The notes below the pieces were generated by a model that was given only the letters and a program-made list of their open reading frames with translations, was not told the DNA's origin and ran no database searches. A stretch of 34,422 nt of DNA, taken from positions 1-34,422 of the forward strand of contig JAJZDH010000003.1 in NCBI GenBank assembly GCA_021828665.1, in the 5' to 3' direction. The stretch is from Thermoplasmata archaeon. GTDB taxonomy: Archaea > Thermoplasmatota > Thermoplasmata > Lutacidiplasmatales > UBA184. Shown here piece by piece: positions 19,511 to 27,791 of the stretch (position 1 is its first letter; every line of letters starts with the position of its first letter). A program made the translations under genes and the position numbers.

Positions 19511-20218
19511 CTAGGCGCCCGGCGCCGTCGATCCGCCGGCCGGATCCGGCGGGGCGGAGCCTCCTCCGGGGGCGGCCGGATCCCCGGTGGCGGGCCGCCG
19601 CCGACGGAGTTCCCGAAGGACCTCGTCGAAGGAGACCCCGCGGGCCTCCAGGAGGACCAGCGTGTGGAAGAGGAGGTCGGCGGCTTCCCACGCGATGGGA
19701 GCCCGGTCCGAACCCTCGGCTGCCAGGATGAGCTCGATCGCCTCCTCCCCCACCTTCCGGCGCAGCCGCGCCGGATCCCGGAGCAGTCCGGCCACATAGG
19801 ATCCGTCGGGGGCCCGCCGGGCCCGGTCCGCGACCACCGCTCGGAGCTCCTCGAGGATCGCATACGGGGGTTCGGGGCCGGGAAAGCAGCTTCCGGCCCC
19901 GGTGTGGCAGGCCGGCCCGAGCGGAAGCACCCGGGCGAGCAGCGCGTCCCGGTCGCAGTCCCATTGGAGGTCGACGACCCGCTGCACGTTCCCGGAACTC
20001 TCCCCCTTGTGCCAGAGCGCCCGCCGCGACCGCGACCAGAAGTGCATCTCCCCGGTCTCCCGGGTCCGCTCCAGGCTCTCGTCCGAGGCGTACGCGAGCA
20101 TGAGGACCTGGCCGGTCTCTGCATGCTGGACCACGACCGGAACGAGGCGCGGTCCCGTCCCCCCGGCCCCGCCCGGGGCGGCCCGGTCGGATCCGCCATC
20201 GGCCGGCTCCTCCGTCAT
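19511..20218 (-). CDS. hisIE: Bifunctional phosphoribosyl-AMP cyclohydrolase / phosphoribosyl-ATP diphosphatase
   Basis: [49 protein letters not shown], then [19 protein letters not shown]. Confidence 0.93.
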
Positions 20219-20985
20219 CCGGCCTCCTCCGAGCGCACCGGGAGGCGGTGCGCCCGCAGGTAGGACTTGATCGAGGGAATCGAGACGGCGCCGTCGTGGA
20301 GCCGGGAGGCGAGCAACGCCGCGTCGGCCAGTCCCTCCCCGAAGAGCCGTCCCATGTCCTCGAACGCCCCGAACCCTCCCGACGCGATCAGGGGCCGCTC
20401 GAGCACCCCCCGCAGCGCCCGGTAGAGGGCCCGGTCGTACCCCGCCTGCGTTCCGTCGGCGTCGATGCTCGTCACCAGGAACTCGCCGGCGCCGGCCGTC
20501 TGCCCCGCCGCGGCCCAGGCCACCACCGAGGTTCCGGTCCGCTCGCGCCCGCCGCGGAGCGCCACCTCCCACCCGTCGGCCGTCCGCGCGGCGTCGATGG
20601 CGAGGACGGCGCACTGCGTCCCGTACTGGGCCGCCGTCTCGGTGAGGAGCCCGGGGCGGCGGAACGCGGCCGTGTTCATCGCCACCTTGTCGGCGCCGTG
20701 GCCGAGGAGGTCGCCGACCTCCTGGAGGCTCCGCACGCCGCCGCCCACCGTCAGCGGGACGGAGAGCGCTCCGGCCACGTCCCGGACCACGCCGAGGTCC
20801 GGCCCCCGTCCCCGAACGGAGGCCTCGATGTCCAGGAGCACGAGCTCATCGGCCCCCTCGGCCTCGTACCGGACGGCGGCCGCGACGGGATCGCCCGCGT
20901 CCCGGAGATCCTCGAACCGGACCCCCTTGACGACCCGTCCGTCCCGGAGGTCGAGGCAGGGGATGATCCGGAGCGCGACCATCAC
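20215..20985 (-). CDS. hisF: Imidazole glycerol phosphate synthase, cyclase subunit
   Basis: [51 protein letters not shown]. Start is GTG 20985 or ATG 20982. Confidence 0.96.
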
Positions 20986-21542
20986 CGGAGCTCCTCCCAG
21001 GCGACCTGGCCCTTCGTGGAGAGTTCCCGGGCCGCCGGCGCGGTCGCCCGGTCGAAGGCGAGGCCGAACGCCTTGAAGGTGGCCTCGAGGAGGTGGTGCG
21101 CCTCGCCCGGCCGGATCGTCCTCTGGTGGAGGGAGAACGGGGCTTCGAGGACCAGCGACCGGAGGAGGTGTTCCCCGAGGTTGTCGGCCGGGAGGTCGGC
21201 GCGGTAGTACGGCCGATCGACCAGGTCGAGGACGACCTGGACGAGCACCTCGTCCATCGGCACCGTCGCCTCGCCGAACCGGGCGATCCCGCGCTCGGGA
21301 ATCGCCCGGCGCAGCGCCCGGCCCAGCGCGAGGGCGCTGTCCTCGGCCACGTGGTGGGGATCGTCGCCGCGGGTGCGGAGCCGGATATCGGTGCCCGAGT
21401 ACCGGGCGAAGGCCCCCAGCAGGTGGACCAGGAAGCCGTCCGGGTGCTCCCAGTCGAGCCGTCCCCGGGCGTGGAGCCGGACCGAGACCTCGACCCGGGT
21501 CTCCCGCGTCGTGCGCCGGAGCCGTGCCGCCGGGCCGGTCAT
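20982..21542 (-). CDS. hisB: Imidazoleglycerol-phosphate dehydratase (monofunctional)
   Basis: RTTRET, HHVAED, VPMDE, HHLLEATFKAFG, STKG. Confidence 0.93.
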   Translation of the reverse strand: MTGPAARLRRTTRETRVEVSVRLHARGRLDWEHPDGFLVHLLGAFARYSGTDIRLRTRGDDPHHVAEDSALALGRALRRAIPERGIARFGEATVPMDEVLVQVVLDLVDRPYYRADLPADNLGEHLLRSLVLEAPFSLHQRTIRPGEAHHLLEATFKAFGLAFDRATAPAARELSTKGQVAWEELR

Positions 21543-22246
21543 CGGACCGCCTCCCGGAGCCGATCCGGGCCCGGTCCCTCGCGGTAGAGGGCGAGGCCGA
21601 CCACCGCCGCGTCGAACCCGGCCGCGGCGAGGGTCCGGAGATCCTCCGGCCCGGCGACCCCCCCCGCCGCGATCCGCTCGTGCCGGCAGCGGGCCACCAT
21701 CTCTCCCAGCGGATCGCCGACGCCCTCCATCCGGCCCTCGGCGACGGTATTCGTGAAGAGGACCCCTCCCAGGGGCAGGTCGTTCGCGGTCCTCACGATC
21801 TCCCCGAGCGGCACGGCCAGGGACTCGGTCCGGCCCGCGAGGAGCGCCCGCCGGTCCCGGTGGTCGATCCCGAGGAGGATCCGTCCGGGGTGGCGCCGGG
21901 CCATCGCGACGAGCCACGGGGGATCCCGGAGGGCGCGCGTGGAGACGATGGCCCGGGAAGCCCCGGCCGCGAGGAGCTCGCCGATCCGATCCGTATCCCG
22001 GAGACCACCGCCCACCTGGACCGGCACCTCCACGCTGCGGAGGATGCGGAGGAGGAGCTCCCGGTTGTCCCCCCGGCCCAGGGCCGCGTTGAGGTCCACC
22101 ACCTGGAGCCGCCGCGCGCCCCGGTCCGCCCACGCCCGGGCGGTGGCGACCGCATCCTCGGCCACGGTCGTGAGCTGTTCCGGCGGACCGCCCCGCAGGA
22201 ACCCCACCCGGCCATCCCAGAGGTCGAGGGAAGGGATCACGATCAT
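21539..22246 (-). CDS. hisA: ProFAR isomerase
   Basis: MIVIPSLDL, VVDLNAA, VQVGGGLR, LGID, FTN..EG, AAGGV, VGLALY. Confidence 0.92.
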   Translation of the reverse strand: MIVIPSLDLWDGRVGFLRGGPPEQLTTVAEDAVATARAWADRGARRLQVVDLNAALGRGDNRELLLRILRSVEVPVQVGGGLRDTDRIGELLAAGASRAIVSTRALRDPPWLVAMARRHPGRILLGIDHRDRRALLAGRTESLAVPLGEIVRTANDLPLGGVLFTNTVAEGRMEGVGDPLGEMVARCRHERIAAGGVAGPEDLRTLAAAGFDAAVVGLALYREGPGPDRLREAVR

Positions 22247-22860
22247 CCGGCTACCCCCTCCGCCCACTCGAGGAAGGCGGCCAGGAAGGCGGCCCCCGCC
22301 CGTCCGCTCCGCTCCGGGTGGAACTGCACCCCGACCACGGATCCGGCGCGGACGACCGCGGCGAACTCGATCCCATGGAAGGAGGTCGCCACCGTCCCCG
22401 CCGTTCCGGCGGGCAGGGCGTAGGAATGGGCGTAGTACATCTCGGGATCGACCGTCGGCCCGCCGAGCCCGAGCAGCATGGGATCGGGGGTCCGCCGGAG
22501 CGGCGACCAGCCCATGTGCGGCAGGAGCGGTCCGGGGAGACGGACCACCTCGCCGCGGAGGAGCCCCAGACCCTGCCCCGGTCCCTCCTCGCTCGCCCCC
22601 GCCAGGACCTGGAGGCCGGCGCAGATCCCCAGGAGCGGCGTTCCCGCGCGCACCCGCCGCACGAGCTCGGCCCGGAGCGGCTCCACCCCCCGCGCGATCG
22701 CCGGGAAGGAGGCGACCCCGGGGAGGACGAGGATCCCGGCCCCGGCGATCGCCTCCGGGTCCCGGGAGATCCTCGGCGGGCGTCCCAGCCGTTCGAACGA
22801 CCGGGCCAGGCTGAAGAGATTGCCGGTCCCGGTGTCGACGATGAGGATCGGCCCCTTCAT
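22243..22860 (-). CDS. hisH: Imidazole glycerol phosphate synthase, glutaminase subunit
   Basis: GNLFS, LPGV, LGICAGLQ, PHMGW, YYAHSY, QFHPERSG. Confidence 0.95.
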   Translation of the reverse strand: MKGPILIVDTGTGNLFSLARSFERLGRPPRISRDPEAIAGAGILVLPGVASFPAIARGVEPLRAELVRRVRAGTPLLGICAGLQVLAGASEEGPGQGLGLLRGEVVRLPGPLLPHMGWSPLRRTPDPMLLGLGGPTVDPEMYYAHSYALPAGTAGTVATSFHGIEFAAVVRAGSVVGVQFHPERSGRAGAAFLAAFLEWAEGVAG

Positions 22861-23861
22861 GCGCCCACCTCCGCGAGCGCCCCGAGGCAGCGGGCGATCT
22901 GCTCCGGGGAGCCGACGGTGATGCGGAGGCAGCCGCCGGCGGCGCCGCCGGGATAGTCGATCCGGCGCACCCAGATCCCCCGCCGTCCGAGCTCCCGGTG
23001 GATCCGGACGGCCTCCGGCGACGGACCGATCAGGAGGAAGTTCGCCTGCGAGGGCCACACCTTCCAGCCGAGACCGGCGAGGCCCCGGGCCAGCGTCCGC
23101 CGGCCCGCCCGCGCCCGGGCCACCGTCCGGGTCACGAAGCGGTCGTCGGCGAGGGCGGAGAGGGCCGCCCGGATCGAGAAGGAGGAGACGGAGAACGGCG
23201 GCCGGGCCGCCCGCAGCCGCTGGACGATCTCCGGGGCCCCGACGGCATACCCGACCCGGATCCCGGGCAATCCGTAGGCCTTCGAGAAGGTGCGGACGAC
23301 GACGACATTCGGCTGGGCGCGGGCGAGCGGCAGGAGGTCCTGCCCGGCGAACTGGTGGTAGGCCTCGTCCAGGACCACCGGACGCGGGGAGGAGGCCGCG
23401 AGCGCCCGGTAGGCCGCGGCCGGATAGGCGGTGCCGGTCGGATTGTTCGGGCTCGCGAGCAGATAGACGGAGGCATCGGCCCGCCGCAGCGCCGCCCGGG
23501 GGAGCTCCTTCGCCTCCGGCACCGGAACGGTCGCCCCGCCGTGGGCGGCGAGGAATCGGGCGTACATCGCAAAGGTCGGGTTTAGGGTGGCCGCCCGGCC
23601 CCCGTACGGGACCAGCGTGCGGACCGCAAGCCCGAGGATCTCGTCCGAACCGTGGCCGACGACGATCCATTCGGCCGGGACCCCGAGCTTCCGGGCCAGG
23701 GCCTCGACCAGCTCGGTCGCCTCCGGGTCCGGATAGGCGGCCAGGTCCGGGGGCGAGCTGCCCTCCCACGCCCGCCGGAGCGCCTCGAGATTGAGCTCGG
23801 GCACGGTGTTGAGGTCCAGCCGGTCCACGGCGTTCGTCCCGTCGGCCTCCCCCGGCCTCAT
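22857..23861 (-). CDS. hisC: Histidinol-phosphate aminotransferase
   Basis: YPDP, GSDE, PTFAMY, SPNNPTG, DEAY, RTFSKAYGLPGIRVG (PLP Lys), SQANF, LRITVG. Confidence 0.94.
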   Translation of the reverse strand: MRPGEADGTNAVDRLDLNTVPELNLEALRRAWEGSSPPDLAAYPDPEATELVEALARKLGVPAEWIVVGHGSDEILGLAVRTLVPYGGRAATLNPTFAMYARFLAAHGGATVPVPEAKELPRAALRRADASVYLLASPNNPTGTAYPAAAYRALAASSPRPVVLDEAYHQFAGQDLLPLARAQPNVVVVRTFSKAYGLPGIRVGYAVGAPEIVQRLRAARPPFSVSSFSIRAALSALADDRFVTRTVARARAGRRTLARGLAGLGWKVWPSQANFLLIGPSPEAVRIHRELGRRGIWVRRIDYPGGAAGGCLRITVGSPEQIARCLGALAEVGA

Positions 23862-25177
23862 AGGGCGCTCCGTGGGGGAGCCACCGAACGGATCGCGATG
23901 GCGGCGGCATGGGCCCCGAACCCCTCGGCGGTTGCGATCCGGAGCGCCGGGCGGGCGAGGGACGAAAGATCCCCGCGGGCGATCTCGAGGTAGCTCACCG
24001 GCTTCTGGAAGTCCCGGACCCCCAGCGCTCCGTACGCCACCGCCGCCCCGGCCGTCGGGAGGATGTGGTTGGTGCCGGCGCCGTAATCCCCGAACGGGAC
24101 GGCGCTGAACGGCCCGAGGAAGACGCATCCCGCATTCTGCACCCGGCGGAGGAGCGCCCGGGGCCGGCGGACCCCGAGGACGAGGTGCTCGGGGGCCAGC
24201 TCGTTGGCGAGCTCGATCCCCTGCGCCCGGGAGAGGTTCCGGACCATCCAGCCGTGCCGGCGGAGGGAACGGAGGATCGGGACCCGCCGATCGGCCCCGG
24301 CCACCGCCGCCCCGAGCGCCTGCGCGACTTCCGCCGCGGGCCGGTCGTCGAGGAGGATGAGGCCGGCGGCGGAGTCCTCCCCGTGCTCGGCTTGCGCCAC
24401 GAGCTCGGCGGCCACGAACCGGGTCGGAAAGCGGGCGTCCGCCAGCACCACCACCTCGCTCGGGCCGGCGGGGGCATCGGTGCCGACGCGATCGGCGACC
24501 TGCCGCTTCGCCTCCGTGACGTAGGCGTTCCCCGGCCCCACGATCCGATCGACGGCCCGGACCGAGGCGGTGCCGTACGCGAGCGCGCCCACCGCCTGCG
24601 CGCCGCCGGCCACCAGAAGCTCGGTGGCCCCGGCGAGGTGGGCCGCCGCAAGGACGGCATCGGAGGGAAGACCGCCCCCCCGCGCGGCCGGGGAGGCGAT
24701 CACGATCTCCGGGACCCCGGCGATCCGGGCCGGCAGGACCCCCATGAGCACGGTGGAGGGATAGCCGCGGGGTCCACCGGGCACGTAGACCCCCACCCGA
24801 CGGAGAGGGCGGAGCACCTGCCCGGCCCGCGAGCCGGAGGCGCCGATCCGGATCTCGTAGGATCGGCCACGCTGCGGGGCATGGAACCGGGCGATCCGGT
24901 CGCGGGCCGCGATCAGCGCGGCCCGGAGCGGTTCCGGGATCCGACGGGCGGCGGCGGCGAAGGCGCGCGGCCCGAGGAGGAGACGGTCCGGGGCCCGCCC
25001 CTCGAACCGGCGGGCGTAGTCGGCCAGCGCCTCGTCCCCGCGCCGTTCGACGCCGGCCAAGATCTCCGCGACCCGTCGGGCGGCTTCCCGGCGGGACGGA
25101 CGGAACGCCCGGAGCTCCCGGGCGATCTCGGGAATCTCCCGGTCCCGGCCGTCCACCTCCCGGATCCACGCCCTCAC
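23858..25177 (-). CDS. hisD: Histidinol dehydrogenase
   Basis: VGVYVPGG..YPSTVLM, GGAQAVGALAYG, GPGNAYVTEAK, PAGPSE, QAEH, APEHL, GDYGAGTNHILPT. Confidence 0.96.
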   Translation of the reverse strand: MRAWIREVDGRDREIPEIARELRAFRPSRREAARRVAEILAGVERRGDEALADYARRFEGRAPDRLLLGPRAFAAAARRIPEPLRAALIAARDRIARFHAPQRGRSYEIRIGASGSRAGQVLRPLRRVGVYVPGGPRGYPSTVLMGVLPARIAGVPEIVIASPAARGGGLPSDAVLAAAHLAGATELLVAGGAQAVGALAYGTASVRAVDRIVGPGNAYVTEAKRQVADRVGTDAPAGPSEVVVLADARFPTRFVAAELVAQAEHGEDSAAGLILLDDRPAAEVAQALGAAVAGADRRVPILRSLRRHGWMVRNLSRAQGIELANELAPEHLVLGVRRPRALLRRVQNAGCVFLGPFSAVPFGDYGAGTNHILPTAGAAVAYGALGVRDFQKPVSYLEIARGDLSSLARPALRIATAEGFGAHAAAIAIRSVAPPRSAL

Positions 25178-26040
25178 GGGATCACCCGCTGCAGCGGAAG
25201 GACCATGATGGCCCGGGCCCCCGCCCGCCGGAGCCGGCCGAGGAGGCGGTCGAGACCCTCCTCGGGGATCACGGCCTGGAGGGCGACCTCCGGCCCGCCG
25301 CCCACGAGCTCGGCGACGGTGGGTGCGTCCGAGGGATGGAGCCAGCCCGAGATCTCCGAGATCCGGTCCCGGGGGATCCGGGCCACGAGGCAGCGGCGGC
25401 CCTCCGCCGCGACCACGCTCCGGAGCGCGATCTCGATCTCCCGCAGCCGTTCCGTCCCGGCCCCCGGACGCGAACTCCCGGCCGGGCCGATGAGGACCGC
25501 CTGGGATTCGAGGATGGACCCCAACAGCTTGAGCTCGTTGTCCCGCAGGGTGCGGCCGGTCTCCACGAGATCCGCGATGAACTCCGCCGCCCCGATCCGG
25601 GGCGCCACTTCCACGGCGCCCCGGGTGGGAACGATCTCGATCTGGCGACCCAGGCTCCGGAAGTACTGGCGGACCAGGCGGGGGTAGGAGGTGGCCACCC
25701 GCGCCCCGGGAGGGATCTCCTCGGGCCGGTCCACGACGTGCCCGGAGGCGGCCGCCAACGAGAGGCGGCAATAGCCGAACGGGAGCGCCATCCGTTCCCG
25801 CACGCGCGCATCGCCCTCCCGGACGATGTCGCGCCCGGTGATCCCGAGGTCCACGGAGCCCCGGGCAACATACTCGGGGATGTCCCAGGGACTGGCGTAG
25901 TGGATCTCGTACCGTTCGGGGGAGCGGTGGTCGCTCAGCCGCCGCCCGTCGGCGTCGGGGGGCGGAAAGCCCCCCACGGCCCGGAGGAGCCGGTCGGCCG
26001 GCTCGGCGAGCCGCCCCTTGTTCGGGATCGCGAGCCGTAC
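25174..26040 (-). CDS. hisG: ATP phosphoribosyltransferase, long form with C-terminal regulatory domain; start codon unresolved
   Basis: DIPEYV..G..DLGITGRD, VATSYP, GAVEVAP, IADLVETGRTL, PTVAEL, GARAI. The conserved N-terminus VRLAIPNKGRL lies at 26040-26008, in frame but upstream of the first canonical start (GTG 25977). Confidence 0.93.
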   Translation of the reverse strand, partial: VRLAIPNKGRLAEPADRLLRAVGGFPPPDADGRRLSDHRSPERYEIHYASPWDIPEYVARGSVDLGITGRDIVREGDARVRERMALPFGYCRLSLAAASGHVVDRPEEIPPGARVATSYPRLVRQYFRSLGRQIEIVPTRGAVEVAPRIGAAEFIADLVETGRTLRDNELKLLGSILESQAVLIGPAGSSRPGAGTERLREIEIALRSVVAAEGRRCLVARIPRDRISEISGWLHPSDAPTVAELVGGGPEVALQAVIPEEGLDRLLGRLRRAGARAIMVLPLQRVIP

Positions 26041-26116
26041 CGGCCCGGACCGCCGCCCGCGCGGAGTTCGGGTGGATCGGGGGGGGACGCGGCGGACCGT
26101 CGCGGGACCGGTCGCT

Positions 26117-26191
26117 TCAGAAATTCGGAATGCAGCCGACCTGCGACGTCGCGGCGTGAACGCAATCCCACGCTACGACCTCGGCTGCCAT
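26117..26191 (-). CDS. Candidate his-operon leader peptide, MAAEVVAWDCVHAATSQVGCIPNF (24 aa)
   Basis: First ATG after the TTATAT box, 26 nt downstream of it, which is the typical near-leaderless position. The stop TGA sits in the sequence AAT TTC TGA A. Confidence 0.5.
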   Translation of the reverse strand: MAAEVVAWDCVHAATSQVGCIPNF

Positions 26192-26217
26192 CGCGTTCGG
26201 GGGGGAAAACCCGGGGC

Positions 26218-26223
26218 ATATAA
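26218..26223 (-). promoter_or_regulatory. TATA box of the his operon
   Basis: TTATAT within AATCGTTATATG, the strongest AT-rich patch upstream of hisG. Confidence 0.7.
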
Positions 26224-26372
26224 CGATTGGCAGGGAGGCGGCCCCCCGGAGGGTCTCTCACCTCCGGAACCCTCACTGCCGACGGGGAGAGGGAGGCGAG
26301 GTCCTCCGCTTCAAGGGCCCCGGCGCCGGATCGCCCGCGCCGGCTGCCGCCGCCGGGGGCCGTGCGCCGGGA

Positions 26373-27191
26373 TTACCGGTCGCCCCCCCGATGGGGCCGG
26401 TCGCCCGGTCCACGGGGCGGGCGCCGCACCCAGCTTCCGGGAGCGCTCCCTGGTCTTCCGGCGCTCCGGTCGCCGCTCCATGCCGCCGGTTGCGGATCGG
26501 TCGGGGAGGTACGCTCCGCCGCCGGCACGGTGAGGTAGGGCAGGAGGGAGAGGAGGATCCGATTCTCCGCCTTGCGCAGGAGCGACTGGAACCCGGGCCG
26601 GGAGATCCCGAGCCTTCTCCCGAGGGCCTCCGTGGTGATGCTCCGGGGAATGCGGTAGTATCCCTGGTCGATCGCCGCCATCAGCGCCGCGCGCTGCTTG
26701 ACGGTCAGCCCGTCGAGGAGCCCCGCCACCGGCACGAGCAGGGACCGGTCGAAGGGAAGGGTCGAAATCGGGTGGGTGCCCACCCGAACGATCCGGACCT
26801 CCGCGGGCAGGCGGTCGAAGGTGGCGGCGGAGAACTCCCTGCCGGAGACCAGGAACTGGTAGGTCTCCCCTTCCGGCGCGTAGGTCGACGGTCCCAGGTG
26901 GAGTCCGCCGTCGGCCTCCGCCACCGGAATGACCCGGCCGGAGCGGCAGCAGGCGCACTCCGGAAAACGGAGCATCGCCGCCGAATGGTCCTCCTCGAGG
27001 AAGACCACGGAACCCCCCACCGCTTCGTACGCGGCGATCGCCGCCCGGAGCTCCGCTGGGTCCGGACCCCCGAGTTCGAGCGTGGCCTGGCGGCCCCGGT
27101 GGCAGAGATGCGCGACCCTCACGGAGCTCCCGGCCGGAAGGGGGCCCGCGAACGGACACGGATGCCGTACGGTCAGGGTGACCAAGTTCAC
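26373..27191 (-). CDS. Bat (HTH_10)-type transcription regulator with a Cys/His-rich N-terminal domain
   Basis: LTVKQRAALMAAIDQGYYRIPRSITTEALGRRLGISRPGFQSLLRKAENR. The N-terminal part has HPCPF, HLCH and CACC. Confidence 0.87.
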   Translation of the reverse strand: MNLVTLTVRHPCPFAGPLPAGSSVRVAHLCHRGRQATLELGGPDPAELRAAIAAYEAVGGSVVFLEEDHSAAMLRFPECACCRSGRVIPVAEADGGLHLGPSTYAPEGETYQFLVSGREFSAATFDRLPAEVRIVRVGTHPISTLPFDRSLLVPVAGLLDGLTVKQRAALMAAIDQGYYRIPRSITTEALGRRLGISRPGFQSLLRKAENRILLSLLPYLTVPAAERTSPTDPQPAAWSGDRSAGRPGSAPGSWVRRPPRGPGDRPHRGGDR

Positions 27192-27250: not shown

Positions 27251-27282
27251 ATTACCGTAATATATGGCACCTAGGTTTGCCC
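27251..27282. promoter_or_regulatory. Divergent promoter with TATA box (TAATATAT) flanked by two inverted repeats
   Basis: ATTAC-C-GTAAT (27251-27261) and ACCTAGGT within GGCACCTAGGTTTGCC. Confidence 0.55.
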
Positions 27283-27287
27283 GTCCG

Positions 27288-27791
27288 ATGCCCCGACCTC
27301 CCCGTCGCCCCCCCTCCCCCGCCCGCGGGTCGCGGCCCCGACCCCGGGACGACCCGCTCGACGGGGGGCCGCTCGCCCCGTACAAGGCGAACTATCGCGG
27401 CCTGCTCGCGGAGGTGCGGGCGCTCCTGGCACCGCGGGAGCTCCTCCTCTCCGATGCCCGCGCGCTCCGGCTCGCGGGGCGGGGCCCGACCAGTCCGACG
27501 GCGATCGCGCTGGCGCTCGACATCTCGCCCGCCTCGGCGACCGAGCTCATCGACCGCCTCGAGCGGCGGGGCCTTCTCCGCCGTTCCACCGACCGGACCG
27601 ACCGGCGGGCGGTCGTGGTTTCGCTGACCCCCTCCGGATCGCGCGCGAACCGCTGGGCCGCCGAGCGGGTGCGCCGGTTGGCCCGGGCCATCTCCCGGGA
27701 GCTGGGGCCGGAGGGGTGCGCGGCGGTCGACCACGCCTCCGGACTGGTCGCGGCCGCGCTCCAAACGTGCCGGGCCCGGCGGCTCCGGTGA
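27288..27791 (+). CDS. MarR-family transcription regulator
   Basis: SPTAIALALDISPASATELIDRLERRGLLRR..DRTDRRAVVVSLTPSG. ATG 27288 lies about 22 nt after the TATA box, whereas the track start at 27264 overlaps the box. Confidence 0.9.
   Translation: MPRPPRRPPSPARGSRPRPRDDPLDGGPLAPYKANYRGLLAEVRALLAPRELLLSDARALRLAGRGPTSPTAIALALDISPASATELIDRLERRGLLRRSTDRTDRRAVVVSLTPSGSRANRWAAERVRRLARAISRELGPEGCAAVDHASGLVAAALQTCRARRLR

Follow-up and report, generated by a model that had tools for sequence, protein, structure and literature searches.

A conserved upstream reading frame of the his operon in Thermoplasmata, a candidate histidine-sensing leader that may act through +1 ribosomal frameshifting

The window analysed here is a stretch of 34,422 nucleotides (nt) from a Thermoplasmata archaeon (GenBank assembly GCA_021828665.1, contig JAJZDH010000003.1, taken at its full length), which carries a complete histidine biosynthesis (his) operon on its minus strand. 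The first gene of the operon, hisG, has no canonical start codon at its conserved N-terminus, and is preceded by a short upstream open reading frame (uORF) in whose +1 frame hisG lies. Comparison of sequences across the class established this uORF as a conserved leader of an archaeal his operon: an ATG-started uORF of 13–27 codons, located behind a TATA-like box, was found at 62 of 100 Thermoplasmata hisG loci, belonging to five families. All 62 leaders contain a His codon, and at 61 of them the +1 frame is open from that codon to the start region of hisG. At two loci, the window and a relative (L006), the +1 frame runs straight into a hisG that has no start codon of its own. The uORF could thus sense the histidine supply by means of a +1 ribosomal frameshift, a proposal that is the best supported of those weighed here and that we regard as evenly balanced. 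What is seen in the alignments is the conserved architecture; the frameshift, its site and its dependence on histidine are what we infer from it.

The elements of the window between the promoter and hisG are the following:

26218–26223, minus strand: TATA box TTATAT within atCGTTATATgc, 26 nt 5′ of the leader ATG at 26191
26117–26191, minus strand: leader uORF MAAEVVAWDCVHAATSQVGCIPNF, 24 codons followed by TGA (26119–26117)
26173–26175, minus strand: TAG closing the +1 (hisG) frame, 14 nt 5′ of the His codon
26156–26161, minus strand: candidate +1 shift site, consisting of GTT (Val, 26161–26159) and the invariant His codon CAC (26158–26156), codons 11 and 12 of the leader
26041–26172, minus strand: open +1-frame stretch from leader to hisG, 44 codons without a stop or an ATG, GTG or TTG
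26041–26116, minus strand: spacer proper, 76 nt
26049–26054, minus strand: GGCGGT, resembling a Shine–Dalgarno (SD) sequence, 8 nt 5′ of the GTA at 26040, possibly by chance at 74% GC
26038–26040, minus strand: GTA (Val), non-canonical as a start codon, residue 1 of the VRLAIPNKGR strand
25174–26040, minus strand: hisG, long-form ATP phosphoribosyltransferase, 288 amino acids from the conserved strand to TGA
25975–25977, minus strand: GTG, the first canonical in-frame start codon, 21 codons too late

The hisG product matched both HisG (PF01634, E = 1.2e-44) and HisG_C (PF08029, E = 5.6e-10) in Pfam, that is, the catalytic domain and the C-terminal regulatory domain of the long form. The hisG-frame translation reads ...SGP-VRLAIPNKGRLAEPADRLLRAV, where GTA 26040 encodes residue 1 of the conserved first strand, VRLAIPNKGRL. 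This codon accounts for 1.3% of the Val codons in the genome (1.62 Mb, 97.8% complete, ≈74% GC). The PNKGR motif is invariant in all eight HisG sequences of our alignment (A1). From the TAG at 26175 to the GTG at 25977, the frame contains no ATG, GTG or TTG, and the near-cognates are ATT (26166 and 26124), ACG (26100) and the GTA itself. An ordinary start just before the first strand (pattern M-x-x-[VIL]R[IT]A[IV]PNKGR) is absent from the window hisG. Because there is no earlier ATG, GTG or TTG in frame, an open reading frame (ORF) call for hisG begins at GTG 25977, and a protein made from there would be without the first strand and the KGR motif. Gene callers can be expected to shorten hisG or overlook it in genomes of this kind, and to leave the leader uncalled, which would bias auxotrophy predictions for uncultured Thermoplasmata.

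Hand estimates from base composition at 74% GC put the chance of 65 codons without a start-type codon at ≈0.14, and that of 44 codons without a stop at ≈0.5, so that each of these stretches alone is unremarkable. That 21 conserved N-terminal residues, PNKGR included, should lie 5′ of the first usable start is not a matter of chance. An assembly error was considered as the cause, and was rejected at the consensus level. The window was compared with Logan contigs, which came from DNA sequencing of metagenomes of mine drainage, soil and sediment. Contigs X2 and X4 (of equal length and depth, and maybe from one data set) span 25800–26400 and are free of indels, differing from the window only by a substitution at 26070 (G>C), while contig X12 (from another study, record 8) covers 26014–26186 with the same single substitution. 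All three have GTA at 26040. A fourth contig, X11, covers 26090–26345 with five substitutions, all of them 5′ of the uORF. Since the contigs agree without an indel, the consensus bears out the GTA, the uORF and the length of the spacer, and the assembly error in 26000–26230 for which the preliminary description of this DNA had left room can be set aside. The substitution at 26070 (G>C on the plus strand) is a polymorphism of the spacer, where it changes the +1-frame codon CGA to GGA and creates neither a stop nor a start.

The start-less hisG, the bounding TAG and GTG, the near-cognates, the TATA box 26 nt before the leader ATG, the 24-codon uORF and the +1 position of hisG had all been reported in the preliminary description, and all were found again here. 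With the TATA box this close to the leader ATG, the transcript would be leaderless or nearly so. The box is unchanged in contig X11 despite the five nearby substitutions, and a AUCGUUAUA core stands at the same distance from the ATG in three relatives of family f27. The uORF is homologous to the f27 leaders (e.g., MQAVVAAWGCVHAAQAQVDCSSGSA) and to the leader of L006, and no second copy was found elsewhere in the window genome. It is rich in codons that are rare in the genome, including GTT (2.2% of Val codons) and ATT (1.8% of Ile codons) besides GTA.

The 62 leaders are distributed over the families as follows (the window belongs to f1):

f6: leader at 41 of 41 loci
f27: leader at 7 of 7 loci
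f26: leader at 3 of 3 loci
f10: leader at 5 of 5 loci
f1: leader at 6 of 7 loci

Examples, each followed by a stop codon, are MAKDEVVFDCLHG, MARSLTVFGSLHA and MATSRVVYGSLHA in f6, MSANDATLSGCLHS in f26, MAKIPVYGLLHPEMV in f10, and MAAEAVAGCYHLAIR and MQPDRVVWDCHHLPTPPTGCAGTCIDR in f1. The His codon is CAC in 38 leaders and CAT in 24, and the leader stop varies between TGA, TAG and TAA at a fixed place. An invariant His codon combined with a stop that varies in identity and keeps its place argues that the uORF is translated; the suggestion in the preliminary description that it is a real leader was therefore well founded. No leader was found at the sampled loci of f8 (0/14), f28 (0/6), f31 (0/4), f33 (0/2), f35 (0/1), f17 (0/5), f15 (0/1) and f20 (0/3), nor at L005, a locus of the window's own genus.

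As a control, we used a leader detector that was free of any motif, which scored 71 of the 80 named loci. Leader-bearing Thermoplasmata accounted for 12 of its 17 matches. It matched none of 23 loci in the leaderless families f8 (10 of the 14 loci), f28, f31, f33 and f35, and 5 of the 59 other named loci, two of which were bacterial leaders of the classical kind, in which His codons stand in runs. Bacterial-type leaders with His runs precede a long-form hisG at L121 (a metagenome-assembled genome, MAG, of Neomarinimicrobiota; …SAHHHPHHWVH) and L149 (a Planctomycetota MAG; …CPHHPAHHHG…). An unrelated uORF, MVESAIVSSMAGGQHHN, which has two adjacent His codons, lies 52 nt 5′ of hisG at L007 (genome G038, family f11); hisG has a normal ATG there and lies in the +1 frame of the uORF, which may be an independent leader.

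The second reading frame is conserved too. Counted from the His codon, the +1 frame extends without a stop for 87–150 nt (56 loci measured). At 61 of the 62 loci it stays open until at most 13 nt from the first conserved hisG codon, or else continues in frame into hisG. The spacers of 55 loci contain 56 stops in the 0 frame and 66 in the +2 frame, compared to two in the +1 frame. For 24 representatives the corresponding counts (0/+1/+2) are 24/2/29 (binomial P = 8e-8), and the product of the shuffle probabilities for an open +1 frame is 10^-11.3. Two overlapping ORFs with a conserved downstream +1 frame, as in programmed +1 frameshifting, are thus present, and the frame relation first noticed in the window is a meaningful one. 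Among the relatives compared, the uORF and the open +1 frame proved to be conserved, whereas the context of the leader stop varies and the in-frame fusion is confined to the window and L006. Third-position GC of the window spacer (by hand count, 72% when read in the hisG frame, 89% in that of the uORF) was dropped as a measure, 25–29 codons being too short for it.

The distance from the uORF stop to hisG ranges from 57 to 159 nt, and it is a multiple of three in 20 of 28 genus-by-length classes (P = 4e-5). In those classes the uORF is in frame with hisG, and the +1 ORF ends at the NTGA of the start codon. Since the uORF is usually in the hisG frame, readthrough of the leader stop was considered, and was rejected because of the 56 further 0-frame stops. 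The multiple-of-three spacers are instead explained by the second (+1) frame, which ends as follows:

38 loci: at a TGA overlapping the start codon (NTGA), three codons 5′ of the conserved strand
10 loci: 2 nt 5′ of the conserved strand
11 loci: elsewhere, from 13 nt before to 7 nt after the start of the conserved strand
1 locus (L040): 26 nt 5′ of the conserved strand
2 loci (the window and L006): no end, the +1 ORF running in frame into hisG

The hisG start has the NTGA form at 46 of the 62 leader loci. A hisG without any start-type codon occurs only in the window and at L006, and these are the only two loci with a fused +1 ORF (Fisher P = 5e-4, or 1.6e-3 when L055 is counted as start-less). 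Altogether a canonical hisG start is missing at three of the 62 loci, the third being L055 (genome G172), which has CTG (as CTGA) at the position of its relatives' start. At L058 (G078), the position at which hisG starts with GTG in the other f10 loci is taken by a GTA, with a TTG further on. Non-canonical hisG start codons may be tolerated where the +1 ORF brings in ribosomes.

A hisG that had simply lost its start codon, in an operon on its way to being lost, would also look start-less. The gene is indeed patchy in its distribution: it is present in 163 of 401 sampled genomes of the class, a sample that has it in 45 of 46 genomes of f6 and 48 of 48 of f8, and it occurs in only 7 of 180 genomes of f1 and 7 of 44 of f27. 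A dead gene would stay open for long at 74% GC, and the GTA could be a mutated GTG. However, all eight his genes have strong Pfam matches, the window HisG keeps the 59 columns that are invariant across the eight sequences of alignment A1, and the leader and spacer are unchanged in the variant contig (X11) with five substitutions just upstream. L006, whose HisG is 45% identical to that of the window, is in the same start-less, fused state, which either arose twice together with the fused frame or has long been kept, and in both cases argues against a dying gene. With eight intact genes and the invariant HisG columns in place, the his operon looks functional by sequence, and we consider decay an improbable explanation.

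If ribosomes change frame within the leader, the place where they may do so is narrowly bounded. The overlap between the uORF and the +1 ORF that is common to all loci covers −11 to +8 nt relative to the His codon, or about six codons centred on it. The upstream limit of the +1 frame lies only 11–26 nt 5′ of the His codon in 17 of the 62 leaders, and at several loci only 11–14 nt; GTAG, with its TAG at −14, is found in the window, L006 and L013. In the 13-codon leaders, the 0-frame stop follows 6 nt (two codons) past the His codon. The codon before His is CTT in 50 leaders, GTT in six, ATT in one, TAC in four and TGC in one, and NUU-CAY, at leader codons 11–12, is therefore the conserved candidate shift site. 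By standard pairing rules, tRNA-Leu(GAG) should pair equally well with CUU and UUC, and genes for tRNA-Leu GAG and tRNA-Val GAC are both present in the window genome. Re-pairing in the +1 frame would be complete at the 50 CTT sites, would retain two of three pairs at the seven with GTT or ATT, and would be nil at the five with TAC or TGC. A +1 shift at GTT-CAC in the window would put UUC in the P site and ACG in the A site.

The preliminary description had placed the shift at the leader stop, UUC-UGA-A, or alternatively had proposed re-initiation at the overlapping AUU. The register is right in the window, and +1 sites at stop codons (prfB, antizyme) are well established. The comparison with relatives speaks against both forms of the proposal. 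The last codon and the stop vary freely (GGG-TGA, GCG-TGA, GGG-TAG, CGG-TAA and others), so that this stop context is conserved in no relative, and the 13-codon leaders stop only two codons past the His codon. UUC re-pairs poorly on UCU, an AUU is missing at the leader stop of the second start-less locus (L006), and a shift at the stop would have no link to the histidine supply. We consider a shift or re-initiation at the leader stop very improbable.

A shift at the His codon could proceed as follows. Transcription would start ≈25 nt after the TATA box, and the leader would be translated from the ATG at 26191. When His-tRNA is plentiful, the single His codon would be decoded, and the ribosome would terminate at the leader stop without making HisG. 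When His-tRNA is scarce, the ribosome would wait with an empty A site on CAC and with its peptidyl-tRNA on the preceding NUU (GUU in the window, CUU in most relatives). The peptidyl-tRNA would then slip by one base onto UUC, and the ribosome would read the spacer in its new, +1 frame. In most lineages the +1 ORF would end at the NTGA over the hisG start, leading to termination and reinitiation at hisG with the spacer kept translated. In the window and L006, HisG would be made only as a trans-frame product (...WDCV-TPRR...SGP-VRLAIPNKGR), which would have no need of a start codon of its own. Archaeal transcription termination may act on untranslated RNA, and translation of the spacer may also shield the transcript from premature termination at the hairpin, helix and U-run of f6 described below. 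This full version, in which histidine starvation is sensed by a programmed +1 frameshift at one hungry His codon (NUU-CAY), the shifted ribosome reaches the hisG start, and HisG has become an obligate trans-frame fusion in two lineages, is held tentatively, at slightly less than even confidence.

Several observations weigh against it. The genomes compared are all MAGs, and a single sensor codon is unusual for an amino-acid leader. In the window itself, the P-site GUU would meet UUC with a first-position mismatch, and no re-pairing at all is to be expected at L006 (CAU-CAC or UGC-CAU) or at four f1 loci, which have UAC-CAU. Both of the +1-frame spacer stops belong to L040. In the GC-rich f1, chance would suffice for an open +1 frame (P = 0.6–0.9), and the statistical weight therefore comes from f6, f26 and f10. 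NTGA is common at the hisG start in the absence of a leader too (15 of 23 loci), which makes the overlap ancestral rather than designed. Masking of the ribosome-binding site (RBS) by structure is not evident, since the mean unpaired probability of the hisG RBS (0.34 in leader loci) does not differ clearly from that in 22 leaderless controls (0.41), and the window leader folds no better than its shuffles (z = +0.63). Finally, the +1 frame contains an NTG at −11 or an ATG at +1 in 59 of the 62 leaders, so that ribosomes could initiate the +1 ORF independently in most lineages.

The last of these points leads to a different explanation. The +1 ORF might be a separate small ORF that ribosomes enter directly, by initiating or re-initiating at the NTG at −11 or at the ATG in C-ATG-C. 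A ribosome stalled on the His codon would mask or unmask that start, and hisG would respond through coupling or RBS occlusion; the window would then be a derived or decaying copy that has lost the internal start (ATG to ACG). Besides the 59 of 62 leaders with such a codon, it is in favour of an independent start that the codon at −12 ends in T in all 52 non-Trp NTG cases in spite of the C-ending synonyms, and that f27 has an SD-like GGGGU 7 nt 5′ of that ATG. On the other hand, 11 of the 62 +1 ORFs have no canonical start codon, and of the 52 leaders with NTG at −11 (TTG 31, ATG 11, CTG 10), ten have this CTG alone. No SD sequence precedes the −11 codon in f6. Positive coupling would invert the logic, as completion of the leader in histidine-rich cells would switch hisG on. 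Neither the window nor L006, both of which are without any NTG, would make HisG, although their hisG is intact and in frame with the +1 ORF. We consider an independent start of the +1 ORF unlikely.

Third positions of the leader codons from −12 to −1 before His are almost always T at the 62 loci (TTT/TAT/TCT, GAT/GGT, CTT/GTT), even in genomes of 70–74% GC. These T-ending codons create the +1-frame NTG at −11 in 52 of the 62 leaders, and they point to selection at the nucleotide level beyond the peptide.

When f6 sequences were folded singly, a hairpin of 4–7 bp was found that extends from the His codon over the stop (mean z = −1.98, with 28 of 37 below −1.5). Its arms differ by genus (CGGG/CCCG, CAUGCG/CGCAUG, GCGUG/CACGC, CGGAU/AUCCG), as does its register (alignment A2). 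By eye, an outer helix is also apparent in f6 between CUCGAGGCGC, just 5′ of the leader ATG, and GCGCC..CGAG, 25–35 nt past the leader stop, followed by a U-run (e.g., L017:1317–1420 and L034:1311–1414); the pair is CUCGAGGGAU/AUUUCUCGAG in genus g31. RNAalifold gave a weak consensus for the f6 leaders (energy −5.98) and recovered neither the outer helix nor the hairpin.

These structures would fit a classical stalling attenuator, in which the pause at the single His codon remodels the RNA or blocks termination at the U-tract, the open +1 frame is a by-product, and the window HisG starts at GTA 26040 with the help of the SD-like GGCGGT. The GGCGGT is at the right distance from the GTA, near-cognate initiation would be possible if the window alone had to be explained, and L058 and L055 have GTA and CTG, respectively, where a start is expected from their relatives. 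To our knowledge, however, GTA is not an established start codon, and L006 has neither a GTA nor another near-cognate of GTG at the equivalent place. The hairpin was not seen in f1, f27 or f10, the window leader gave no structure signal, and the RNAalifold consensus did not contain these structures even in f6. An attenuator would also leave unexplained the rarity of +1 stops, the multiple-of-three spacers and the link between start loss and fusion. As a full account of the leader we judge it doubtful.

The HisG of the window is closest to those of f27 (46–48% identity), and its HisG, promoter and leader resemble f27 more than the genus-mate G003 (39% identity, leaderless). This likeness suggests that the his operon moved laterally together with its leader. 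A search for closer relatives in metagenome contigs gave only one distant match (36% identity). The rest of the operon is arranged as follows:

19511–25179, minus strand: hisD, hisC, hisH, hisA, hisB, hisF and hisIE, tightly packed, identified by Pfam

The order is thus hisG-D-C-H-A-B-F-IE, complete, in 19511–26040 of the minus strand, with Pfam matches to Histidinol_dh (E = 2e-128), Aminotran_1_2, GATase, His_biosynth (twice), IGPD, and PRA-CH plus PRA-PH. The hisG gene ends in GTGA, where its stop codon shares bases with a GTG of the hisD frame. Directly 5′ of the his promoter and on the same strand is a gene for an HTH_10 regulator of the bacterio-opsin-activator type (26373–27191, minus strand), beyond which lies a divergent MarR-family gene (27264–27791, plus strand). 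Either regulator could add transcriptional control of the his operon. ARAGORN found 33 tRNA genes in the window genome, tRNA-His not among them, which probably reflects an incomplete MAG or an intron-containing gene overlooked by the program.

Control of amino-acid operons by leader peptides is a textbook bacterial mechanism. We found no description of this element, nor of such control in Archaea, in the literature searched (supplementary files were outside the search), in agreement with the preliminary description, which knew of no archaeal equivalent. Like bacterial hisL (Rfam His_leader), the archaeal leader is a short ORF 5′ of hisG with a codon for the end product, where pausing would report on charged tRNA. 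The hisL leaders have runs of His codons and terminator/antiterminator hairpins, whereas a single His codon (two in L006) and a conserved second frame characterize the archaeal leader, so that the likeness to a bacterial leader drawn in the preliminary description does not extend to His runs. Rfam searches likewise gave no His_leader match in the window at E ≤ 10 (RF00514, which we take to be the accession of the bacterial type) and no family match in the loci of eight relatives at E ≤ 0.1; mir-877, the only Rfam match in the window (E = 0.7), is a chance match. By its sequence, the element is not a bacterial His leader.

The candidate site itself has known counterparts. The +1 site of prfB is CUU_UGA_C. 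At the +1 site CUU_AGG_C of Ty1, ABP140 and EST3, peptidyl-tRNA-Leu re-pairs on the overlapping UUN, and in Ty1 a slow A-site codon next to the P-site CUU drives 40% +1 shifting (reviewed in PMC5009743). CUU-CAY-G has the form of CUU_AGG_C. In these systems slow decoding happens at a rare Arg codon or at a stop, and the protein that results is made at a fixed ratio or is autoregulated; in the archaeal leader the slow codon would encode the operon's own amino acid, and 5 of the 62 sites lack an NUU. Frameshifting inside the leader ORF of an amino-acid operon has a precedent in E. coli pheL, once the main amino-acid candidate, which the same review judges incidental and not used for control (PMC5009743; see also PMC3082878). 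The pheL shift occurs at CCC_UGA, at the end of the leader.

For the step from the +1 ORF to hisG, termination–reinitiation coupling at ATGA overlaps has been described in archaea (PMC6728339). The leader loci with an NTGA hisG start, where the +1 ORF can end, share this arrangement. The upstream partner there would be a frame that is reachable only from within the leader, not a gene, and the window has no overlap at all, only the fusion. For Archaea, a 2021 review lists a single cellular frameshift, a −1 shift in fucA1, with +1 cases only suggested (PMC8211752), and the natural role of “hungry codon” frameshifting is treated as unclear in the 2016 review (PMC5009743). If the proposed mechanism is true, Archaea would have their first described amino-acid-sensing leader and their first cellular +1 recoding event, and no other biosynthetic operon in any domain would be known to use starved-codon frameshifting as its sensor. 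The precise dual-frame design of the 62 loci makes the long-standing idea of a productive use of “hungry codon” frameshifting directly testable.

In its logic, the closest known system is the leader of ermC (ermCL), by analogy with the proposed mechanism. A ketolide-induced frameshift in ermCL sends ribosomes into the spacer and thereby turns on ermC (PMC5009743). Both would use a short leader ORF as the sensor and a change of frame inside the leader, after which the spacer is translated and the downstream gene comes on. The ermC leader is bacterial, is triggered by an antibiotic, and acts by unfolding a structure that hides the RBS. In the archaeal leader, the proposed trigger is a shortage of His-tRNA at one codon and RBS masking is not evident; here, the new frame is itself a conserved ORF, either terminating at the hisG start or continuous with hisG.

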